DNA from: an uncultured Gammaproteobacteria bacterium
Lineage (GTDB): Bacteria; Patescibacteriota; Patescibacteriia; Patescibacteriales; WJLG01
Assembly: GCA_964547855.1 (NCBI GenBank)
Contig: CAZJPG010000004.1
Location: 1-54,050 of the forward strand
Direction of reading: 5' to 3'
DNA length: 54,050 nucleotides
Shown here: positions 18,138 through 26,274 of the stretch, one piece after another
How positions within the stretch are numbered: position 1 is the stretch's first letter
How the letters are laid out: every line of letters starts with the position of its first letter
Notes under the pieces: generated by a model
The model's input: the letters and a program-made list of their open reading frames with translations, nothing else
Databases searched by the model: none
What the model was told of the DNA's origin: nothing
Made by a program: the position numbers and the translations under genes

Positions 18138-18599
18138 ATGAAAGATTTTTTAGCTTTGCTTGGTTTTTTGTTGGCCTCGGCCGCAACCGCCGCCATAGGT
18201 GGCTTGGCTCCGTCGGCTGCGGGATATGTCGAATTAAGGCAGCCATTCTTTGCTCCGCCGTCTTGGTTGTTTGGACCGGTTTGGACTTTGCTCTATGTTT
18301 TAATGGCCGTAGCCGCTTGGCTAGTTTGGCGGGAAAGAAAAAAGACCAAAGTCAAAGTGGCTTTATTTTTTTATTTCGCGCAATTAGCCTTGAATGCCTT
18401 GTGGACGTTGATATTCTTTTTATGGATGGCCAGATTTTGGGCCGTGGTCGAAATAATTATCCTCTTCGTGTTCATTTTTGTGACTACGTTGTTTTTCGGA
18501 CGCATCAAAAAGGCATCGGCCTATCTAATGATCCCGTACATGGCTTGGGTGATCTTTGCCACAGTTTTAGCTTCGGCAGTTTGGTATCTTAATAGATGA
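18138..18599 (+). CDS. tspO: TspO/MBR family protein
   Basis: L.QPFFAPPSWLFGPVWTLLY, QLALNALW, PYMAWV.FA. Confidence 0.92.
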   Translation: MKDFLALLGFLLASAATAAIGGLAPSAAGYVELRQPFFAPPSWLFGPVWTLLYVLMAVAAWLVWRERKKTKVKVALFFYFAQLALNALWTLIFFLWMARFWAVVEIIILFVFIFVTTLFFGRIKKASAYLMIPYMAWVIFATVLASAVWYLNR

Positions 18600-20171: not shown

Positions 20172-23060
20172 ATGGAAAGATACGATCACAAAGCCATTGA
20201 GAAAAAATGGCAAACAAAATGGGAGGAAGATGGGGTATACAAGACCGGAGAAGACCGCTCTAAGCCGAAGTATTATGTTTTGGACATGTTTCCCTATCCA
20301 TCAGGGGCTGGTTTGCATATCGGTCATGTTAAGGGTTATTCGGCGACCGACGTTCTGGCTAGGATGAAAAGAATGCAAGGCTTCAATGTTTTGCACCCGA
20401 TCGGTTGGGACGCTTTTGGTTTGCCGGCGGAGAACTATGCTTTAAAGAATAAAGTCCACCCTAAAATTCAAACAGAGGAGAATGTATCTTATTTTAAGCA
20501 ACAGCTTAAGGGTTTGGGTTTTTCTTACGATTGGGACAGAGAGATAAATACTACGGATCCGGAGTATTATAGATGGACGCAGTGGGCCTTTATTAAGATG
20601 TGGGAGAAAGGTTTGGCCTACGAGTCGTTCGAGCCGATCATTTGGTGCCCATCTTGCCAGACTGGCTTGGCTATGGAGGATTTGGAAGACGGAAAGTGCG
20701 AGCGCTGCGGCAGTGAGATCGAGCGCAAGCCAATGCGCCAGTGGGTTATAAAAATAACTCAATATGCTGATCGTTTGCTTGCCGATTTGGATAAATTACC
20801 GGGATGGGAGGAGTCGATCAAGGAGATGCAGCGCAATTGGATAGGAAAATCAGAAGGTGCGGAGATAATATTTCAAATAAAAAATAAAAAAGAAGAAACA
20901 AAGAATGAGGGGGTAAAAGTCTTTACTACGCGTCCGGACACTTTATTTGGAGTAAGCTATGTGGTTCTCGCGCCAGAACACCCGTTGATCGGCGAATTGC
21001 GGTCAGATATCGGCAACTGGGGAGAGGTTGAGGAGTACATCGAAAAGGCTAGGGCCAAGACTGATTTACAAAGGACCGATTTGAACAAAGACAAGACTGG
21101 TATGAAGCTGGATGGTGTTATGGCAATAAATCCAGTTAACGATGAAAAGGTTCCAGTATTCGTCGCTGATTATGTTTTGGCTAATTATGGCACTGGTGCG
21201 GTAATGGCCGTTCCAGCGCACGATCAGCGTGATTATGAATTCGCCCGCAAATATAGTTTGCCAATGAAGCAAGTGATCAGGCCAAAGGATTGTTCTTGGG
21301 ATGACATAAACAAGGTCTTAAAAGGATTGAAAAATATTAAATCCATAGCCGATGAGAGCGGGGTCAAGTTTTGGCTAATGGGAGGATTGGCCTGTGCTTT
21401 CCACAATGGAGTTATATATCGTCAGCATGGAGACTTGGATCTTATAGTCGAGAATGAAGTCGATCTCTCTGGATTCGGTTTAGTTTTGGAAAAGGCGGGT
21501 TTTTTGAAAAAAGGAGAAGAAGTGGACTGTGAAGACCCGAGCCGCAATCATTGTATATATAAGAACGACGAAGGATTGGAGGTCGGAGTCAGTCTTTATA
21601 AACATTTGCCTGATTTTAAGACTCCTGGCCTATCAGAGGAAAAGAAAAAATATAGTGACGTGGAAACTCTCGTGATCAGCCGTGAATATGCCGAGATTTT
21701 TAAGCAGCATCAAATAGAGAAGCGCAACCTTCCTAAAGATATTTTGGATAAGCAATATTTTGGTGGAAAGGCCTTTGAGGACGAGGGTGCTTGTGTGAAC
21801 TCTGATTTTTTAGATGGTCTACCGACGGACGAGGCTAAGAAAAAAATGACAGAATGGCTTGAGCAAAACGAAAAAGGAAAAAAGAAGGTTAATTATAAAT
21901 TGAACGATTGGGTGTTCTCCAGACAAAGATATTGGGGTGAGCCGATTCCTTTCGTGCATTGTGAAAAGTGTGGCACTGTGCCCGTTTCTGTCGACGAGTT
22001 GCCGGTTAAATTGCCGGATGTCGAGCATTATGAGCCGACCGGAACGGGGGAGTCTCCATTGGCGAATATCACGGATTGGGTTAATACGACTTGTCCTAAA
22101 TGCGGTGGAGCGGCTAAGCGCGAGACCAACACGATGCCGCAATGGGCTGGTTCTTCTTGGTATTATTTGCGTTATATGGACCCAAAGAATGATGAAGCTT
22201 TGGTCGATTTGGCCAAGGAGAAATATTGGTCGCCAATCGATTTCTATGTCGGCGGCGCCGAGCATGCCACCCGTCATCTGATCTATGCTCGTTTTTGGCA
22301 TAAGTTCTTATTTGATATTGGCGTCGTTAATTACGAAGAACCGTTCACTAAGTTGCAGCATGTCGGGCTTGTTTTAGGTACTGACGGCAGAAAGATCAGT
22401 AAGCGCTTGAACAACGGAGCCAATCCTTTGGATGTGGCGGCGGAATTCGGCGCCGACGCTTTACGCATCTATGAGAATTTCATGGGTCCATTTGGCCAGT
22501 CTTGTGCCTGGGGCAGCAATGGCCCTGTGGGTGTGCGTCGATTTTTAGATAAAGTTTGGGCGATAGCCAATAGTGGTTTTTCTCCTGAAAGCAGTAAGGA
22601 AGTTTTGAATTTGCTTCACAAGACCATTAAAAAGGTCGGTGACGATATTGCGGAGTTTAATTTGAATACGGCCGTCTCGGCTATGATGATCATGGTCAAC
22701 GCTATCGATGAGCAGGGGATTTCTAAGGAAGATTTTTCAAAGTTCATACAAATACTTTCGCCTTTTGCCCCGCATCTTTGCGAGGAGATTTGGCATGATA
22801 AATTAGGACAGCAAGATGGTGTCTTTAAGACCGAGTGGCCGAAATATGACGAAACTTTAATGAGGGACGAAGTTATAAATTTGGTAGTTCAGGTCAATGG
22901 TAAATTACGCGCCACTCTTAAAGTGTCTCCAGAGATAAACGAAGACGAGGCCAAGAAGGTCGCGTTCGAAAACGCCGATGTTAAAAAGTGGGTCGATGGC
23001 AAAGAGATTGTTAAAGTAGTTTTTGTCCCGGGCAAACTTTTGAATTTTGTAGTAAGATAG
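20172..23060 (+). CDS. leuS: Leucine--tRNA ligase with an inserted nucleotidyltransferase-like domain
   Basis: MFPYPSGAGLHIGH, FTTRPDT, AVMAVPAHDQRD (CP1), DWVFSRQRYWG, KISKR, VVQVNGKLRA; ~160-aa insertion at ~21282-21770. Confidence 0.96.
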   Translation: MERYDHKAIEKKWQTKWEEDGVYKTGEDRSKPKYYVLDMFPYPSGAGLHIGHVKGYSATDVLARMKRMQGFNVLHPIGWDAFGLPAENYALKNKVHPKIQTEENVSYFKQQLKGLGFSYDWDREINTTDPEYYRWTQWAFIKMWEKGLAYESFEPIIWCPSCQTGLAMEDLEDGKCERCGSEIERKPMRQWVIKITQYADRLLADLDKLPGWEESIKEMQRNWIGKSEGAEIIFQIKNKKEETKNEGVKVFTTRPDTLFGVSYVVLAPEHPLIGELRSDIGNWGEVEEYIEKARAKTDLQRTDLNKDKTGMKLDGVMAINPVNDEKVPVFVADYVLANYGTGAVMAVPAHDQRDYEFARKYSLPMKQVIRPKDCSWDDINKVLKGLKNIKSIADESGVKFWLMGGLACAFHNGVIYRQHGDLDLIVENEVDLSGFGLVLEKAGFLKKGEEVDCEDPSRNHCIYKNDEGLEVGVSLYKHLPDFKTPGLSEEKKKYSDVETLVISREYAEIFKQHQIEKRNLPKDILDKQYFGGKAFEDEGACVNSDFLDGLPTDEAKKKMTEWLEQNEKGKKKVNYKLNDWVFSRQRYWGEPIPFVHCEKCGTVPVSVDELPVKLPDVEHYEPTGTGESPLANITDWVNTTCPKCGGAAKRETNTMPQWAGSSWYYLRYMDPKNDEALVDLAKEKYWSPIDFYVGGAEHATRHLIYARFWHKFLFDIGVVNYEEPFTKLQHVGLVLGTDGRKISKRLNNGANPLDVAAEFGADALRIYENFMGPFGQSCAWGSNGPVGVRRFLDKVWAIANSGFSPESSKEVLNLLHKTIKKVGDDIAEFNLNTAVSAMMIMVNAIDEQGISKEDFSKFIQILSPFAPHLCEEIWHDKLGQQDGVFKTEWPKYDETLMRDEVINLVVQVNGKLRATLKVSPEINEDEAKKVAFENADVKKWVDGKEIVKVVFVPGKLLNFVVR

Positions 23061-24437: not shown

Positions 24438-25025
24438 TCAGATCGTAAAAGACTCGTAAAAATCCATTATTCTTTTTTGTGGATGTATATAATTTTTTAT
24501 GTTTTCTGGAGTTGTGAATATTTCCGGATTTTTTTTATAGATTAGAAATAATTTCAAGAAAAAAGTATGGCTTACACAAAGGATGTTGGGGTGTTTTAAT
24601 CTTAACTCTGACAATTTTTTATCTAATTTTTTGATTCTTGCAAGTAATTCATGCCTTTTCTCATTTAGATCGTCACTTATGAAAAGTTCGATAAAATTTT
24701 TTCTAATGGCTGTGCTTAAATTTTTATTATATTCCTTCTCTGTTATGGTTGGGGAGAATTTTATTTCTTGTAATAGTGTTGAGTAAATGATTTTCGGATT
24801 TTTATTGAAAGAGATATTTTTGATCGTTTCTTTCGCTCGTTTTGCGGTGGAGCTTATTATAAAATCAGCCTCACTTCTTTGTTTGTCAATGGGGATTTTT
24901 TTTACCATATCCATATCTAGTCCGGGGTCGTTTTTTCTAGAAAGAAGGAGTTTAATATTATTGAATTTGCTTAATTTGTTTTTTACAACAGGGTTATAGG
25001 GACCTATTTTCATTAAGGTAATCAT
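24438..25025 (-). CDS. Degenerate histidine-phosphatase-fold protein
   Basis: SSTAKRAKET, LQEIKF and ILCVSH match His_Phos_1 landmarks; the RHG motif is replaced by MKIG. Confidence 0.6.
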   Translation of the reverse strand: MITLMKIGPYNPVVKNKLSKFNNIKLLLSRKNDPGLDMDMVKKIPIDKQRSEADFIISSTAKRAKETIKNISFNKNPKIIYSTLLQEIKFSPTITEKEYNKNLSTAIRKNFIELFISDDLNEKRHELLARIKKLDKKLSELRLKHPNILCVSHTFFLKLFLIYKKNPEIFTTPENIKNYIHPQKRIMDFYESFTI

Positions 25026-25030
25026 GTTTT

Positions 25031-25073
25031 TAAAAATGATCGGGGGATAATTATTTCATCTCCCCCGATTCAT
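25031..25073 (-). terminator. Intrinsic terminator after the 25076..25882 gene
   Basis: atcggggga/tcccccgat stem followed by TTTTT on the minus strand. Confidence 0.7.
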
Positions 25074-25075
25074 TG

Positions 25076-25882
25076 TCAATAAAGCTCTCCCTCTATTACC
25101 CCAACCGGGAATTTGGGGTGTGGAGCTAAATAATCTGAATTTGGCACAAGACTAAAGTCAAAAAAATTTTTAATATTCAATGTCTCATGGTTTATAACTA
25201 TGAGATTTTGATTTAAAAATATTTTTCTTAATAGTGTTCCTTGTGTCATGTAAAGGCTCATGGCGTGTGCCGCTGCTTTCTTGTTTTCCTCTTCACTTAG
25301 TTCTCGTCCTCGAAACATCATGGAGAGAAGGGCTCTTTTATTCATGAAATAAGAAAACCTTATTTTAAAATCTCTGTCCGTGCCTTGTCTATCCAATATG
25401 TTTTTTTCTACGATTTCTTGAATTTGGAGATAGTCAATTCCTTTGTCTTGGTAAAAAGATGAAAAAGTTTCCACCTTAGCCAGGCCATTAATTTTTTCTT
25501 GTATGGCCTTAGCGGAATTTTCGCAGCATTCAAGATACTTTTCCCTGTTTTCGGCTACTCGACAGTAAAACTCTTCCATTCCTGATGATATTTCTGGTAG
25601 ATCCGCGACTAGTATGATCCATTTGATGTTTATTTTTCGATGACAGAGATCGTTGATTAAGCACGGAACCGAATCAATGTGGGCTTTGGCCGACAGGCTT
25701 ATCCCGCTTCCAAGTTTACCGGAAAAAGTATATTTTTCTCCGTCATTTGGGTAATCTGGACAGACATTGGATACTAAGGTTATTTCCTTATTCATCCTTT
25801 CTATTTTTTTAACTCCTTGTTTGGAAAACAGAATTTTGTTAGCCTGACCGACAGTGAAATAGTCTTTGCGATTGAGCGACAT
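25076..25882 (-). CDS. Hypothetical protein; possible class Ic aaRS/CDPS-like Rossmann domain
   Basis: AGGAGG SD; downstream of a T-box; segments VCPDY, WIILVADLPE, AKVETFSSF, SLYMTQG. Confidence 0.7.
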   Translation of the reverse strand: MSLNRKDYFTVGQANKILFSKQGVKKIERMNKEITLVSNVCPDYPNDGEKYTFSGKLGSGISLSAKAHIDSVPCLINDLCHRKINIKWIILVADLPEISSGMEEFYCRVAENREKYLECCENSAKAIQEKINGLAKVETFSSFYQDKGIDYLQIQEIVEKNILDRQGTDRDFKIRFSYFMNKRALLSMMFRGRELSEEENKKAAAHAMSLYMTQGTLLRKIFLNQNLIVINHETLNIKNFFDFSLVPNSDYLAPHPKFPVGVIEGELY

Positions 25883-25924
25883 ACGTCCTCCTTTTTTTGT
25901 TTTAAAGAACAGTGAATAAAGAAC

Positions 25925-26239
25925 AAATAAAAAACCTCCCGTCTCTTTATTGGAATATTAAAATTCCAGTAAAAGGACGGAAGGTTGTTCCGCGGTGCCA
26001 CCTTTTTTATTTTGCTAATTCGTTTTTGGCGTTTTATTTATAAAAATAATCCGCCAGTGACGGATTAACAAAATCTCTTTCACTGACTCAGTCTCGTCTT
26101 TTGAGACGACGACATCAGCTTTCCCATGATTACGGGGGAGTCCGGGCCAACACTATGTGCATTGGCCATCTCAGCATGCCCAACCCCTTGTATTTGCACA
26201 AGGGACATGCGTCAATGATTTTTGCGTTTATTAAGTACT
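25925..26239 (-). ncRNA. T-box riboswitch leader (transcriptional attenuator)
   Basis: Minus strand AAGG-UGGCACC-GCGG...CCGUCCUU antiterminator (T-box at 25990-26005) overlapping a long terminator hairpin at 25933-25986 plus U-tract; a sigma70 promoter lies upstream. Confidence 0.85.
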
Positions 26240-26245
26240 AAAGTC

Positions 26246-26274
26246 ATAATACACCTTTTTTGTTTTTTTGTCAA
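26246..26274 (-). promoter_or_regulatory. Sigma70 promoter for the T-box leader
   Basis: Minus strand TTGACA-17 bp-TATTAT. Confidence 0.8.

Follow-up and report, generated by a model that had tools for sequence, protein, structure and literature searches.

A candidate tryptophan-starvation operon pairing a class Ic synthetase-like protein with a phosphatase-fold partner in Patescibacteria-type bacteria

Analysis of a 54,050-nt stretch of DNA (contig CAZJPG010000004.1 of assembly GCA_964547855.1, positions 1 to 54,050; hereafter the window), labelled as an uncultured Gammaproteobacteria bacterium and placed within the Patescibacteriota in GTDB, revealed a compact transcription unit on the minus strand (26274-24438). 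It is composed of a promoter, a leader of ~300 nt, a gene encoding a 268-aa protein (X), a 50-nt spacer containing a hairpin, and a gene encoding a second protein (HP). At the level of sequence, the analysis demonstrated a T-box switch, an X-HP bicistron, a fold of X without ATP motifs, an HP without its nucleophile, and family-wide regulation by tryptophan starvation. With roughly even confidence, we regard X-HP as a Trp-starvation operon of a bacterium of the candidate phyla radiation (CPR)/Patescibacteria type, which raises the supply or salvage of tryptophan.

The T-box leader

The unit is preceded by a sigma-70-type promoter (TTGACA-17 nt-TATTAT; 26246..26274, minus strand), which matches 11 of the 12 consensus positions and is the top site of the region. 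Downstream lies the T-box leader (25929..26224, minus strand), supported by the RF00230 match, the folding z-score and the alignment of orthologs; it contains a reduced Stem I, a Stem II/IIA-B region with CCGUAA, Stem III, the T-box sequence and a terminator. The Rfam scan of the window at the gathering threshold (93 bits) gave no match. A permissive scan (701 nt) located RF00230 at 25970..26224 (minus strand; 50.8 bits, E 3.9e-10), with model positions 1-219 fully covered, and the leader folds with z = -8.7 relative to shuffled sequences.

The canonical T-box sequence AAAGGUGGCACCGCG is present at 26005-25991 (minus strand). Within it, the segment GGUGGCACCGCG (25991..26002) carries UGGC at 26000-25997, which would pair with the GCCA 3′ end of a tRNA. 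A single copy of the 12-mer GGTGGCACCGCG is found in the window, which alone is insignificant, as one or more matches with no more than one mismatch turned up in 36 of 100 shuffled sequences. The intrinsic terminator (CCUUCCGUC...GACGGGAGG followed by U6; 25929..25984, minus strand) overlaps the antiterminator with its 5′ arm in the minimum free energy (MFE) structure, and the CCGUCC strand is shared by both, which makes them competing structures.

Stem I (26174..26210, minus strand) is reduced to a 37-nt hairpin whose 3′ strand bears an invariant bulge of 5 nt, (G)UUGG(G), as defined by MFE folds and by covariation over seven leaders, where 11 of the 15 consensus pairs show compensatory changes. 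In the window, 29 nt stand for 76 model positions and the distal tRNA-elbow platform is missing. Two orthologous leaders (L028 and L036) retain a full-length Stem I with the AGUA, AGAGA and GAA elements, and in both the platform region (AGAGA, distal loop) is present. T-boxes with a reduced Stem I are known, e.g. that of actinobacterial ileS (review PMC7583486).

T-box control of X had been proposed in a preliminary description of this DNA, and it is borne out by the sub-threshold match to RF00230, by the covariation of Stem I and by the leaders of orthologs. Some homologues carry T-boxes as well: among ~23 distinct X loci, collected from public assemblies, ~10 have a like leader upstream of X. 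On this combined evidence, the window leader is a genuine, albeit sub-threshold, T-box.

A deviating leader was found at locus L001 (3380-3640; the same as in L011 and L027; protein P0005), where the Stem I with UGG, Stem II, Stem III and the terminator are kept and AAAGGUGGCACCGCG is lost. This riboswitch has either decayed or works in another way.

Tryptophan as the sensed amino acid

The specifier codon is assigned as UGG (Trp; 26180..26182, minus strand) from the full-length ortholog leaders and from the invariant UUGGG of the reduced versions. In the covariance-model alignment, the specifier columns of the Rfam model hold UGG in both L028 (GAA-UGG-A) and L036 (GAAAu-UGG-G). UUGGG is unchanged in all of the reduced Stem I versions; the register of their bulge is ambiguous (GUUGG or UUGGG), and by itself it does not separate UGG from UUG.

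Nine distinct leaders have kept the T-box sequence, and the antiterminator bulge is UGGC in eight of them and UGGU in the ninth (L015). The discriminator base of bacterial tRNA-Trp is G73, which the UGGC bulge fits. This link draws on general background, since the window contains no tRNA gene and a scan of five loci gave no tRNA-Trp. Together with the genomic contexts described below, these features indicate that the signal sensed by the leader is tryptophan, i.e. tRNA-Trp.

Tryptophan-linked regulation of orthologous loci

Among the ~23 distinct loci, TrpR is encoded in at least seven and trpS is part of the cluster in nine. The arrangements replacing the T-box occur among orthologues that are 44-52% identical to X. 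In L016/L031, L018 and L034, trpS and a gene of a TrpR-family repressor are followed by a promoter overlapped by a perfect palindrome, and then by X and HP. The palindromic operator reads (A)TGTACTAGTACA(T) or CATACTAGTATG, with the core TACTAGTA, and the order trpS-trpR-TACTAGTA operator-X-HP is found in L016, L018, L022, L023 and L034.

Other configurations include trpR immediately 5′ of X (L014), X-HP-trpS with overlapping or closely spaced genes (L004 and L030) and trpS located 3 kb 5′ of the T-box (L015). The remote subfamily (23-25% identity to X) shows the same theme, with (trpS-)trpR-operator-X′-HP′ in L022, L023 and L038. In L020 (5001-5987) a single ORF (P0204) begins with half of a TrpR domain, the N-terminal one (PF01371, positions 14-58 of the 88 in the profile), and continues into a complete X; at this locus HP is cut to 163 aa and trpS lies 2.7 kb away after a rearrangement. 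In genomes of about a thousand genes, a Trp linkage at so many loci cannot be due to chance.

The Trp T-box and TrpR both switch genes on at low tryptophan or low charged tRNA-Trp. Genes under either type of control serve biosynthesis, salvage or uptake, or are trpS itself (e.g. Chlamydia trpRBA).

Loci of the TrpR type have a leader of their own: ~120 nt are conserved between the TrpR operator and X in L016 (2990-3175), L018, L022 (4830-4985), L023 and L034, and partly in L037. The conserved sequence is UUGGUGG(G/A)GCG-hairpin-CGUCU..UGUUGAUUUCUU...AAGGAAUCCACnAAG-UGGCGC-loop-GCGUCA-U6-GUUCUUU. RNAalifold predicted one long-range and two internal helices in addition to a terminator, with compensatory changes in 6 of 31 pairs; hairpin P2 and the terminator could exchange strands. 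The leader has no match in Rfam and may represent either a novel RNA that responds to Trp or to a tRNA, or a strongly reduced descendant of a T-box.

A GUUCUUU box is common to the T-box-type and TrpR-type leaders. In the window it is located at 25921-25927 (minus strand), after the U-tract of the terminator and just 5′ of the ribosome-binding site of X, and the same box occurs in L001, L007, L008, L016, L022 and L023.

Protein X

The gene of X (25076..25882, minus strand) starts at an ATG preceded by the strong Shine-Dalgarno sequence AAGGAGG (25893-25887). Its ORF, structural model and alignments define a Rossmann-fold protein resembling class Ic aminoacyl-tRNA synthetases (aaRSs), cyclodipeptide synthases (CDPSs) and IsnA, with the motifs CPDY and NHxTxN. 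X is a single domain of 268 aa, a size that leaves no space for an anticodon-binding domain. It contains, in this order, ITLVSNVCPDY (34-44), WIILVADLPE (88-97), AKVETFSSF (135-143) and SLYMTQG (209-215), and searches with the regular expressions H[ILVM]G[HN] and K[MFIL]S[KS]S revealed neither HIGH nor KMSKS. The ORF, the sequence of the four motifs and the loss of both signatures agree with the preliminary description.

The AlphaFold model of X (pLDDT 94.1, pTM 0.91) was compared with the PDB using Foldseek. The best match was E. coli TyrRS (6hb6_B, E 5.5e-5), followed by CDPSs, PIsnA and TrpRS, which is the very set of relatives that had been guessed from the sequence; class I LysRS and CysRS scored lower. 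With a root-mean-square deviation of 5-7 Å and 10-16% identity, X is about equidistant from all of these proteins, and it is a new family inside a known fold class.

We found ~20 close relatives of X in 5.8 billion proteins, and at least 236 clusters (50% clustering) of remote relatives, which have no Pfam or NCBIfam domain, no match to a PDB sequence, no name and no informative domain fusions. The homologues in GTDB genomes are mostly from metagenome-assembled genomes (MAGs) of Patescibacteria, Falkowbacteria and Saccharibacteria or from unclassified 'bacterium' MAGs; two records carry the labels Gammaproteobacteria and Nanoarchaeota. Four distant relatives (P0094, P0144, P0155 and P0159; 463-587 aa) have long N-terminal extensions with signal-peptide- or transmembrane-like starts and an ADFEA/ADHDAM variant, and the X superfamily therefore reaches past the Trp-linked CPR proteins.

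There are ~50 invariant positions in the orthologue group. C120, S123, H68, N231, H232 and T234 are conserved over both Trp-linked subfamilies, and C41, P42, Y44, D94, E97, R183, Y211 and N236 are conserved in relatives down to ~20% identity. An hhalign comparison of the X superfamily with six TrpRS sequences gave a probability of 5.6%, a weak match that is a hint only; it placed LGSGISLSAKAH on TGxxPSGxxH(IGN), ILVADLPE on IADxHAL and H68 on the first histidine of HIGH. The collinearity with TyrRS claimed earlier is consistent with this match and is not proven by it. D94 and Y211 lie in segments which we take to bind the alpha-amine of the amino acid in TyrRS and TrpRS (the aspartate after strand 3 and the tyrosine of the Y-x-x-x-Q/M helix).

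Protein HP

X had been called an orphan, a term that no longer applies in view of the remote relatives described above and of a constant partner. Wherever the downstream DNA was long enough, which applies to 18 loci, the next same-strand gene after X encodes a homologue of HP (195-216 aa); these loci include members of the remote subfamily (L024, L025, L037 and L038, down to ~23% identity to X). In the window, HP (24438..25025, minus strand) is a 195-aa protein of the His_Phos_1 fold, identified by alignment and by its match to Pfam PF00300 (32.5 bits; cut-off 21.7). Foldseek matches of its model, which is of poor quality, were all His_Phos_1 enzymes, with PspA-type phosphoserine phosphatases, CobC and PhoE as weak neighbours.

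The RHG motif, which contains the nucleophilic histidine, is replaced by K6-I7-G8. This K-[I/T/V]-G form is present in six of the seven aligned orthologues (K-I-L in L016), and the remote subfamily has ITSAP. R63 (the second arginine), E87 and H153 (the second histidine) are invariant. With the RHG histidine replaced and these three residues kept, HP cannot act as a classical histidine phosphatase or mutase; binding of a phosphate or carboxylate is probably retained. The protein contains hardly any tryptophan: 11 orthologues, 2263 residues in all, have only 4 W.

Proposed role of the X-HP pair

According to the reading that we favour, the sigma-70 promoter would drive synthesis of the T-box leader, the UGG specifier in the shortened Stem I would read the anticodon of tRNA-Trp, and the UGGC bulge of the antiterminator would pair with the free 3′ end of this tRNA only if it is uncharged. 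Binding of uncharged tRNA-Trp would block the terminator (25984-25929) and allow RNA polymerase to read into X and HP. The strict adjacency of the two genes suggests that their products work jointly as a two-protein enzyme.

X would contribute a catalytic core derived from a class Ic aaRS, in which a conserved polar cluster (C41-P-D-Y44, H68, C120, R183 and N231-H232-x-T-x-N236) stands in place of the ATP motifs; the ligand of its synthetase-type pocket is probably tryptophan or a Trp-like moiety, bound without adenylation. HP would provide a phosphate-binding pocket (R63, E87 and H153) without phosphohistidine chemistry. In a bacterium auxotrophic for amino acids, the likeliest role of the pair would be to yield more tryptophan, or chargeable tryptophan, out of a precursor or conjugate that is scavenged and that probably carries a phosphate or an ester.

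A supply or salvage function is favoured over consumption of Trp-tRNA because the operon is on when tryptophan is scarce. Paralogues of aaRSs are known in amino-acid synthesis (AsnA and HisZ). An M29 aminopeptidase gene follows HP at one locus, a single case that fits the theme of scavenging.

In its most specific form, the proposal is that X-HP is a new enzyme system giving tryptophan or chargeable Trp/Trp-tRNA-Trp outside the classical trp pathway, with a Cys/His-centred (possibly metal-containing) site in X, a nucleophile-less subunit of phosphatase fold, and a scavenged phosphorylated or esterified precursor of tryptophan as the substrate. We put this forward tentatively, since in all its particulars it is somewhat doubtful.

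Several points weigh against a tryptophan-supply role. We know of no precedent for a route to tryptophan that is independent of both PLP (pyridoxal phosphate) and ATP. X has no match among Pfam, NCBIfam and PDB sequences, profile searches included, and no characterised homologue was found. Residue equivalence between X and TyrRS/TrpRS is inferred from the weak hhalign match and from general features of these enzymes, not from a superposition, and the model of HP is poor (pLDDT 55.7, from four sequences). The gathering score of RF00230 (93) was not reached by the leader of the window (50.8 bits), L028 (60.8 bits) or L036 (75.2 bits); the low score is mainly a consequence of the shortening of Stem I to a 37-nt hairpin. 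Finally, both the T-box and TrpR are missing from some loci: in L005 the leader is of a different kind, and in L004 and L013 a small helix-turn-helix-like ORF is found instead.

The small ORF 5′ of X in L004 (4535-4849, ~104 aa) and in L013 shares a STIKY motif and has no Pfam match. It may encode a third type of regulator, of helix-turn-helix-like character.

Alternative functions

CDPSs have a class-Ic-like Rossmann fold without HIGH or KMSKS (PMC3105412), and the alternative that survives best, unlikely as we consider it, is that X acts in a similar manner. The aminoacyl group of Trp-tRNA-Trp would be transferred onto Cys41 or Ser38 to form a cyclodipeptide or another conjugate, with HP tailoring or binding the acceptor. 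Like AlbC, Rv2275 and YvmC, X is a single Rossmann domain in the range of ~230-270 aa, with a class Ic core (TM ~0.5) that has no anticodon domain, HIGH or KMSKS. Its structural similarity to CDPSs (TM-scores of 0.50-0.59, target-normalised) is as good as that to TyrRS, and CDPSs are present in CPR bacteria (PDB 7qaw). Furthermore, C41, which lies where the first strand ends and close to the presumed place of the CDPS serine, is nearly invariant in the superfamily, and the Cys nucleophile suggested earlier therefore stays plausible.

With helices equated by topology, helix 170-191 is moderately basic (mean net charge +3.7, with R183 and R191 invariant), but the helices after strand 3 (residues 100-131), the presumed counterpart of the tRNA-binding alpha4, have a net charge of ~0, whereas alpha4 of CDPSs carries nine basic residues (PMC3105412). 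The isoelectric points of X and HP are variable (4.8 to 9.9). None of 40 family members matched the Pfam CDPS profile, even at E up to 10, and the candidate nucleophile is Cys41, not a serine: S38 is invariant among close orthologues only, being S, A, G or P in the superfamily.

X also differs from CDPSs in its obligate His_Phos_1-like partner and in being expressed when Trp-tRNA is scarce, the very state marked by induction by uncharged tRNA-Trp, by TrpR control and by linkage to trpS. These observations render questionable the earlier description of X as an aminoacyl-tRNA-utilising enzyme, as induction through a UGG T-box, the TrpR operator and the trpS clusters are a signature of Trp supply, not of the spending of Trp-tRNA.

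Two further alternatives are about equally improbable, each more so than a CDPS-like activity. According to the first, X-HP is another route to Trp-tRNA-Trp, in which X is a minimal, highly divergent enzyme activating or transferring tryptophan, perhaps from a pre-activated donor, and HP replaces the tRNA- or nucleotide-binding functions. This would be in line with the class Ic fold and with the weak hhalign match of H68 and ADLPE to the HIGH and IADxHAL segments of TrpRS; X is translationally coupled with trpS in L004, and its regulation is the same as expected for trpS. TyrRS is the best Foldseek match of X, the link to tryptophan fits, and ADLPE and (S)LY(x)T(H/Q)G are collinear with IADxHA and Y-P-x-x-Q/M of the synthetases, as judged in part by the weak hhalign match and otherwise from general features of these enzymes. 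X nevertheless lacks a tRNA-binding domain and any match to PF00579. HIGH and KMSKS, which were not found in X, are to our knowledge essential to adenylation in every class I aaRS. Moreover, at least nine loci have a gene for an ordinary TrpRS next to that of X, and neither X nor HP is consistently basic.

According to the second, X is a non-catalytic sensor of tryptophan or tRNA-Trp, or an accessory protein modulating TrpRS, TrpR or another protein, and HP is a pseudo-enzyme scaffold. The TrpR::X fusion, the loss of the nucleophile of HP and the established precedent of HisZ, which serves HisG, are compatible with such a role. However, the fusion has only part of the TrpR domain (14-58 of 88) and may be a decayed rearrangement, and the ~50 invariant positions of the orthologues, together with ~8 polar or Cys residues kept to 20% identity, resemble an active site.

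It is very improbable that the specifier is UUG (Leu) or GGG (Gly) and that the operon has no link to tryptophan: the ambiguous bulge register of the reduced Stem I makes UUG followed by G structurally possible and a LeuRS gene (20172-23060) lies 2 kb off in the window, but UGG occupies the specifier columns of the full-length ortholog leaders, the UGGC bulge implies G73, typical of bacterial tRNA-Trp (tRNA-Leu has A73, as is well established), at least 12 loci have TrpR and trpS contexts, and LeuRS is on the opposite strand, past a gene of the major facilitator superfamily (MFS), on which grounds the Leu specifier was rejected.

Relation to known systems

The T-box riboswitch, the class-Ic-like Rossmann core and the His_Phos_1 fold are of known kinds; the protein family and the combination are new. 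The searchable literature, the coverage of which is incomplete, contains no description of the X family, of X-HP pairs or of their control by T-box or TrpR. Within it, the X-HP pair is not listed among T-box targets, and nothing relevant was found on T-box or TrpR in CPR bacteria/Saccharibacteria, on CDPSs in CPR bacteria or on PIsnA.

The reaction of IsnA-type enzymes requires no ATP and takes place at the amino group of Trp or Tyr, with a sugar phosphate as the second substrate. This precedent, an aromatic amino acid combined with a phosphorylated co-substrate, would suit a phosphate-binding partner. IsnA/PvcA/Dit1 proteins (PDB 9dhm, PIsnA) share the fold class of X (E 6.3e-4, TMq 0.44). 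In contrast to them, X has no match to DIT1_PvcA and no neighbouring oxygenase of the IsnB/PvcB type, its neighbours being HP, TrpR and trpS; in addition, IsnA consumes tryptophan, with which the induction of X by starvation does not fit.

AsnA, HisZ and Chlamydia trpRBA are established cases that share the logic of the proposed system, in that a synthetase-derived protein supplies its cognate amino acid or TrpR guards a small salvage operon of an auxotroph; X-HP has no homology to any of them.

As in the Trp T-boxes of Firmicutes (trpS and trp operon leaders), the leader of X has a specifier bulge, Stem II/IIA-B, a T-box with a UGGN bulge and a terminator/antiterminator switch. It differs in its sub-gathering score, in the retention of a transcription terminator despite the lack of a distal platform, and in its occurrence in CPR bacteria. 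A single orthologous context thus spans T-boxes from full to minimal Stem I with transcription termination kept, and a second type of leader RNA, located behind TrpR operators, stands alongside this series.

CPR/Patescibacteria are held to be auxotrophs with almost no amino-acid metabolism. The three independent Trp-sensing arrangements (T-box, TrpR operator and trpS operon) indicate that a response specific to Trp shortage, mediated by an undescribed enzyme pair, is maintained in these bacteria; if the proposed role is correct, the pair would be a characteristic means by which CPR bacteria auxotrophic for amino acids withstand a lack of Trp. In terms of synthetase evolution, the X family (at least 236 clusters at 50% identity) is a widespread new branch of truncated class Ic cores beside CDPSs and isonitrile synthases, and it would, if the proposed role is correct, constitute a fourth functional lineage of class-Ic-derived enzymes after aaRSs, CDPSs and IsnA. 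X and HP are small, and their direct testing in E. coli should be feasible.

Genomic context of the operon

The spacer between X and HP contains, by reading of the sequence, a hairpin (AUCGGGGGA-N13-UCCCCCGAU) followed by CAUUUUU (25039..25069, minus strand). A promoter-like site, TTGACA-18-AATAAT (25079-25050, minus strand), overlaps this GC-rich hairpin of 9 bp, and the ratio of X to HP expression could be set there.

HP and X have G+C contents of 0.291 and 0.372, well under the average of the window (0.428) and the values of the neighbouring genes (0.41-0.45), which suggests horizontal acquisition and may reflect a recent transfer. Screening by tblastn for an origin from mobile elements or phages gave no match among plasmids and phages.

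The operon is flanked on one side by the genes of LeuRS (20172-23060, plus strand) and an MFS transporter, which are on the opposite strand and are not part of the unit, and on the other side by a divergent KsgA/RsmA gene, which also lies outside it. Elsewhere the window encodes subunits of a 2-oxoacid:ferredoxin oxidoreductase, an ACS-GNAT fusion, MurJ, LepA and RecJ, as well as type-IV-secretion-like genes and a 2757-aa surface protein, and it looks like part of a CPR/Patescibacteria genome.

The LeuRS carries an insertion of ~150 aa (residues ~386-530) beside the editing domain. Residues 386-444 of this insertion resemble a nucleotidyltransferase of the aminoglycoside-2″-adenylyltransferase type (PF10706, 18.6 bits, below the cut-off; motif GDLDLIV). 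A gene for a TspO/MBR protein ('tryptophan-rich sensory protein') is located at 18138-18599 (plus strand), 6.5 kb from the operon, and its proximity is probably coincidental.

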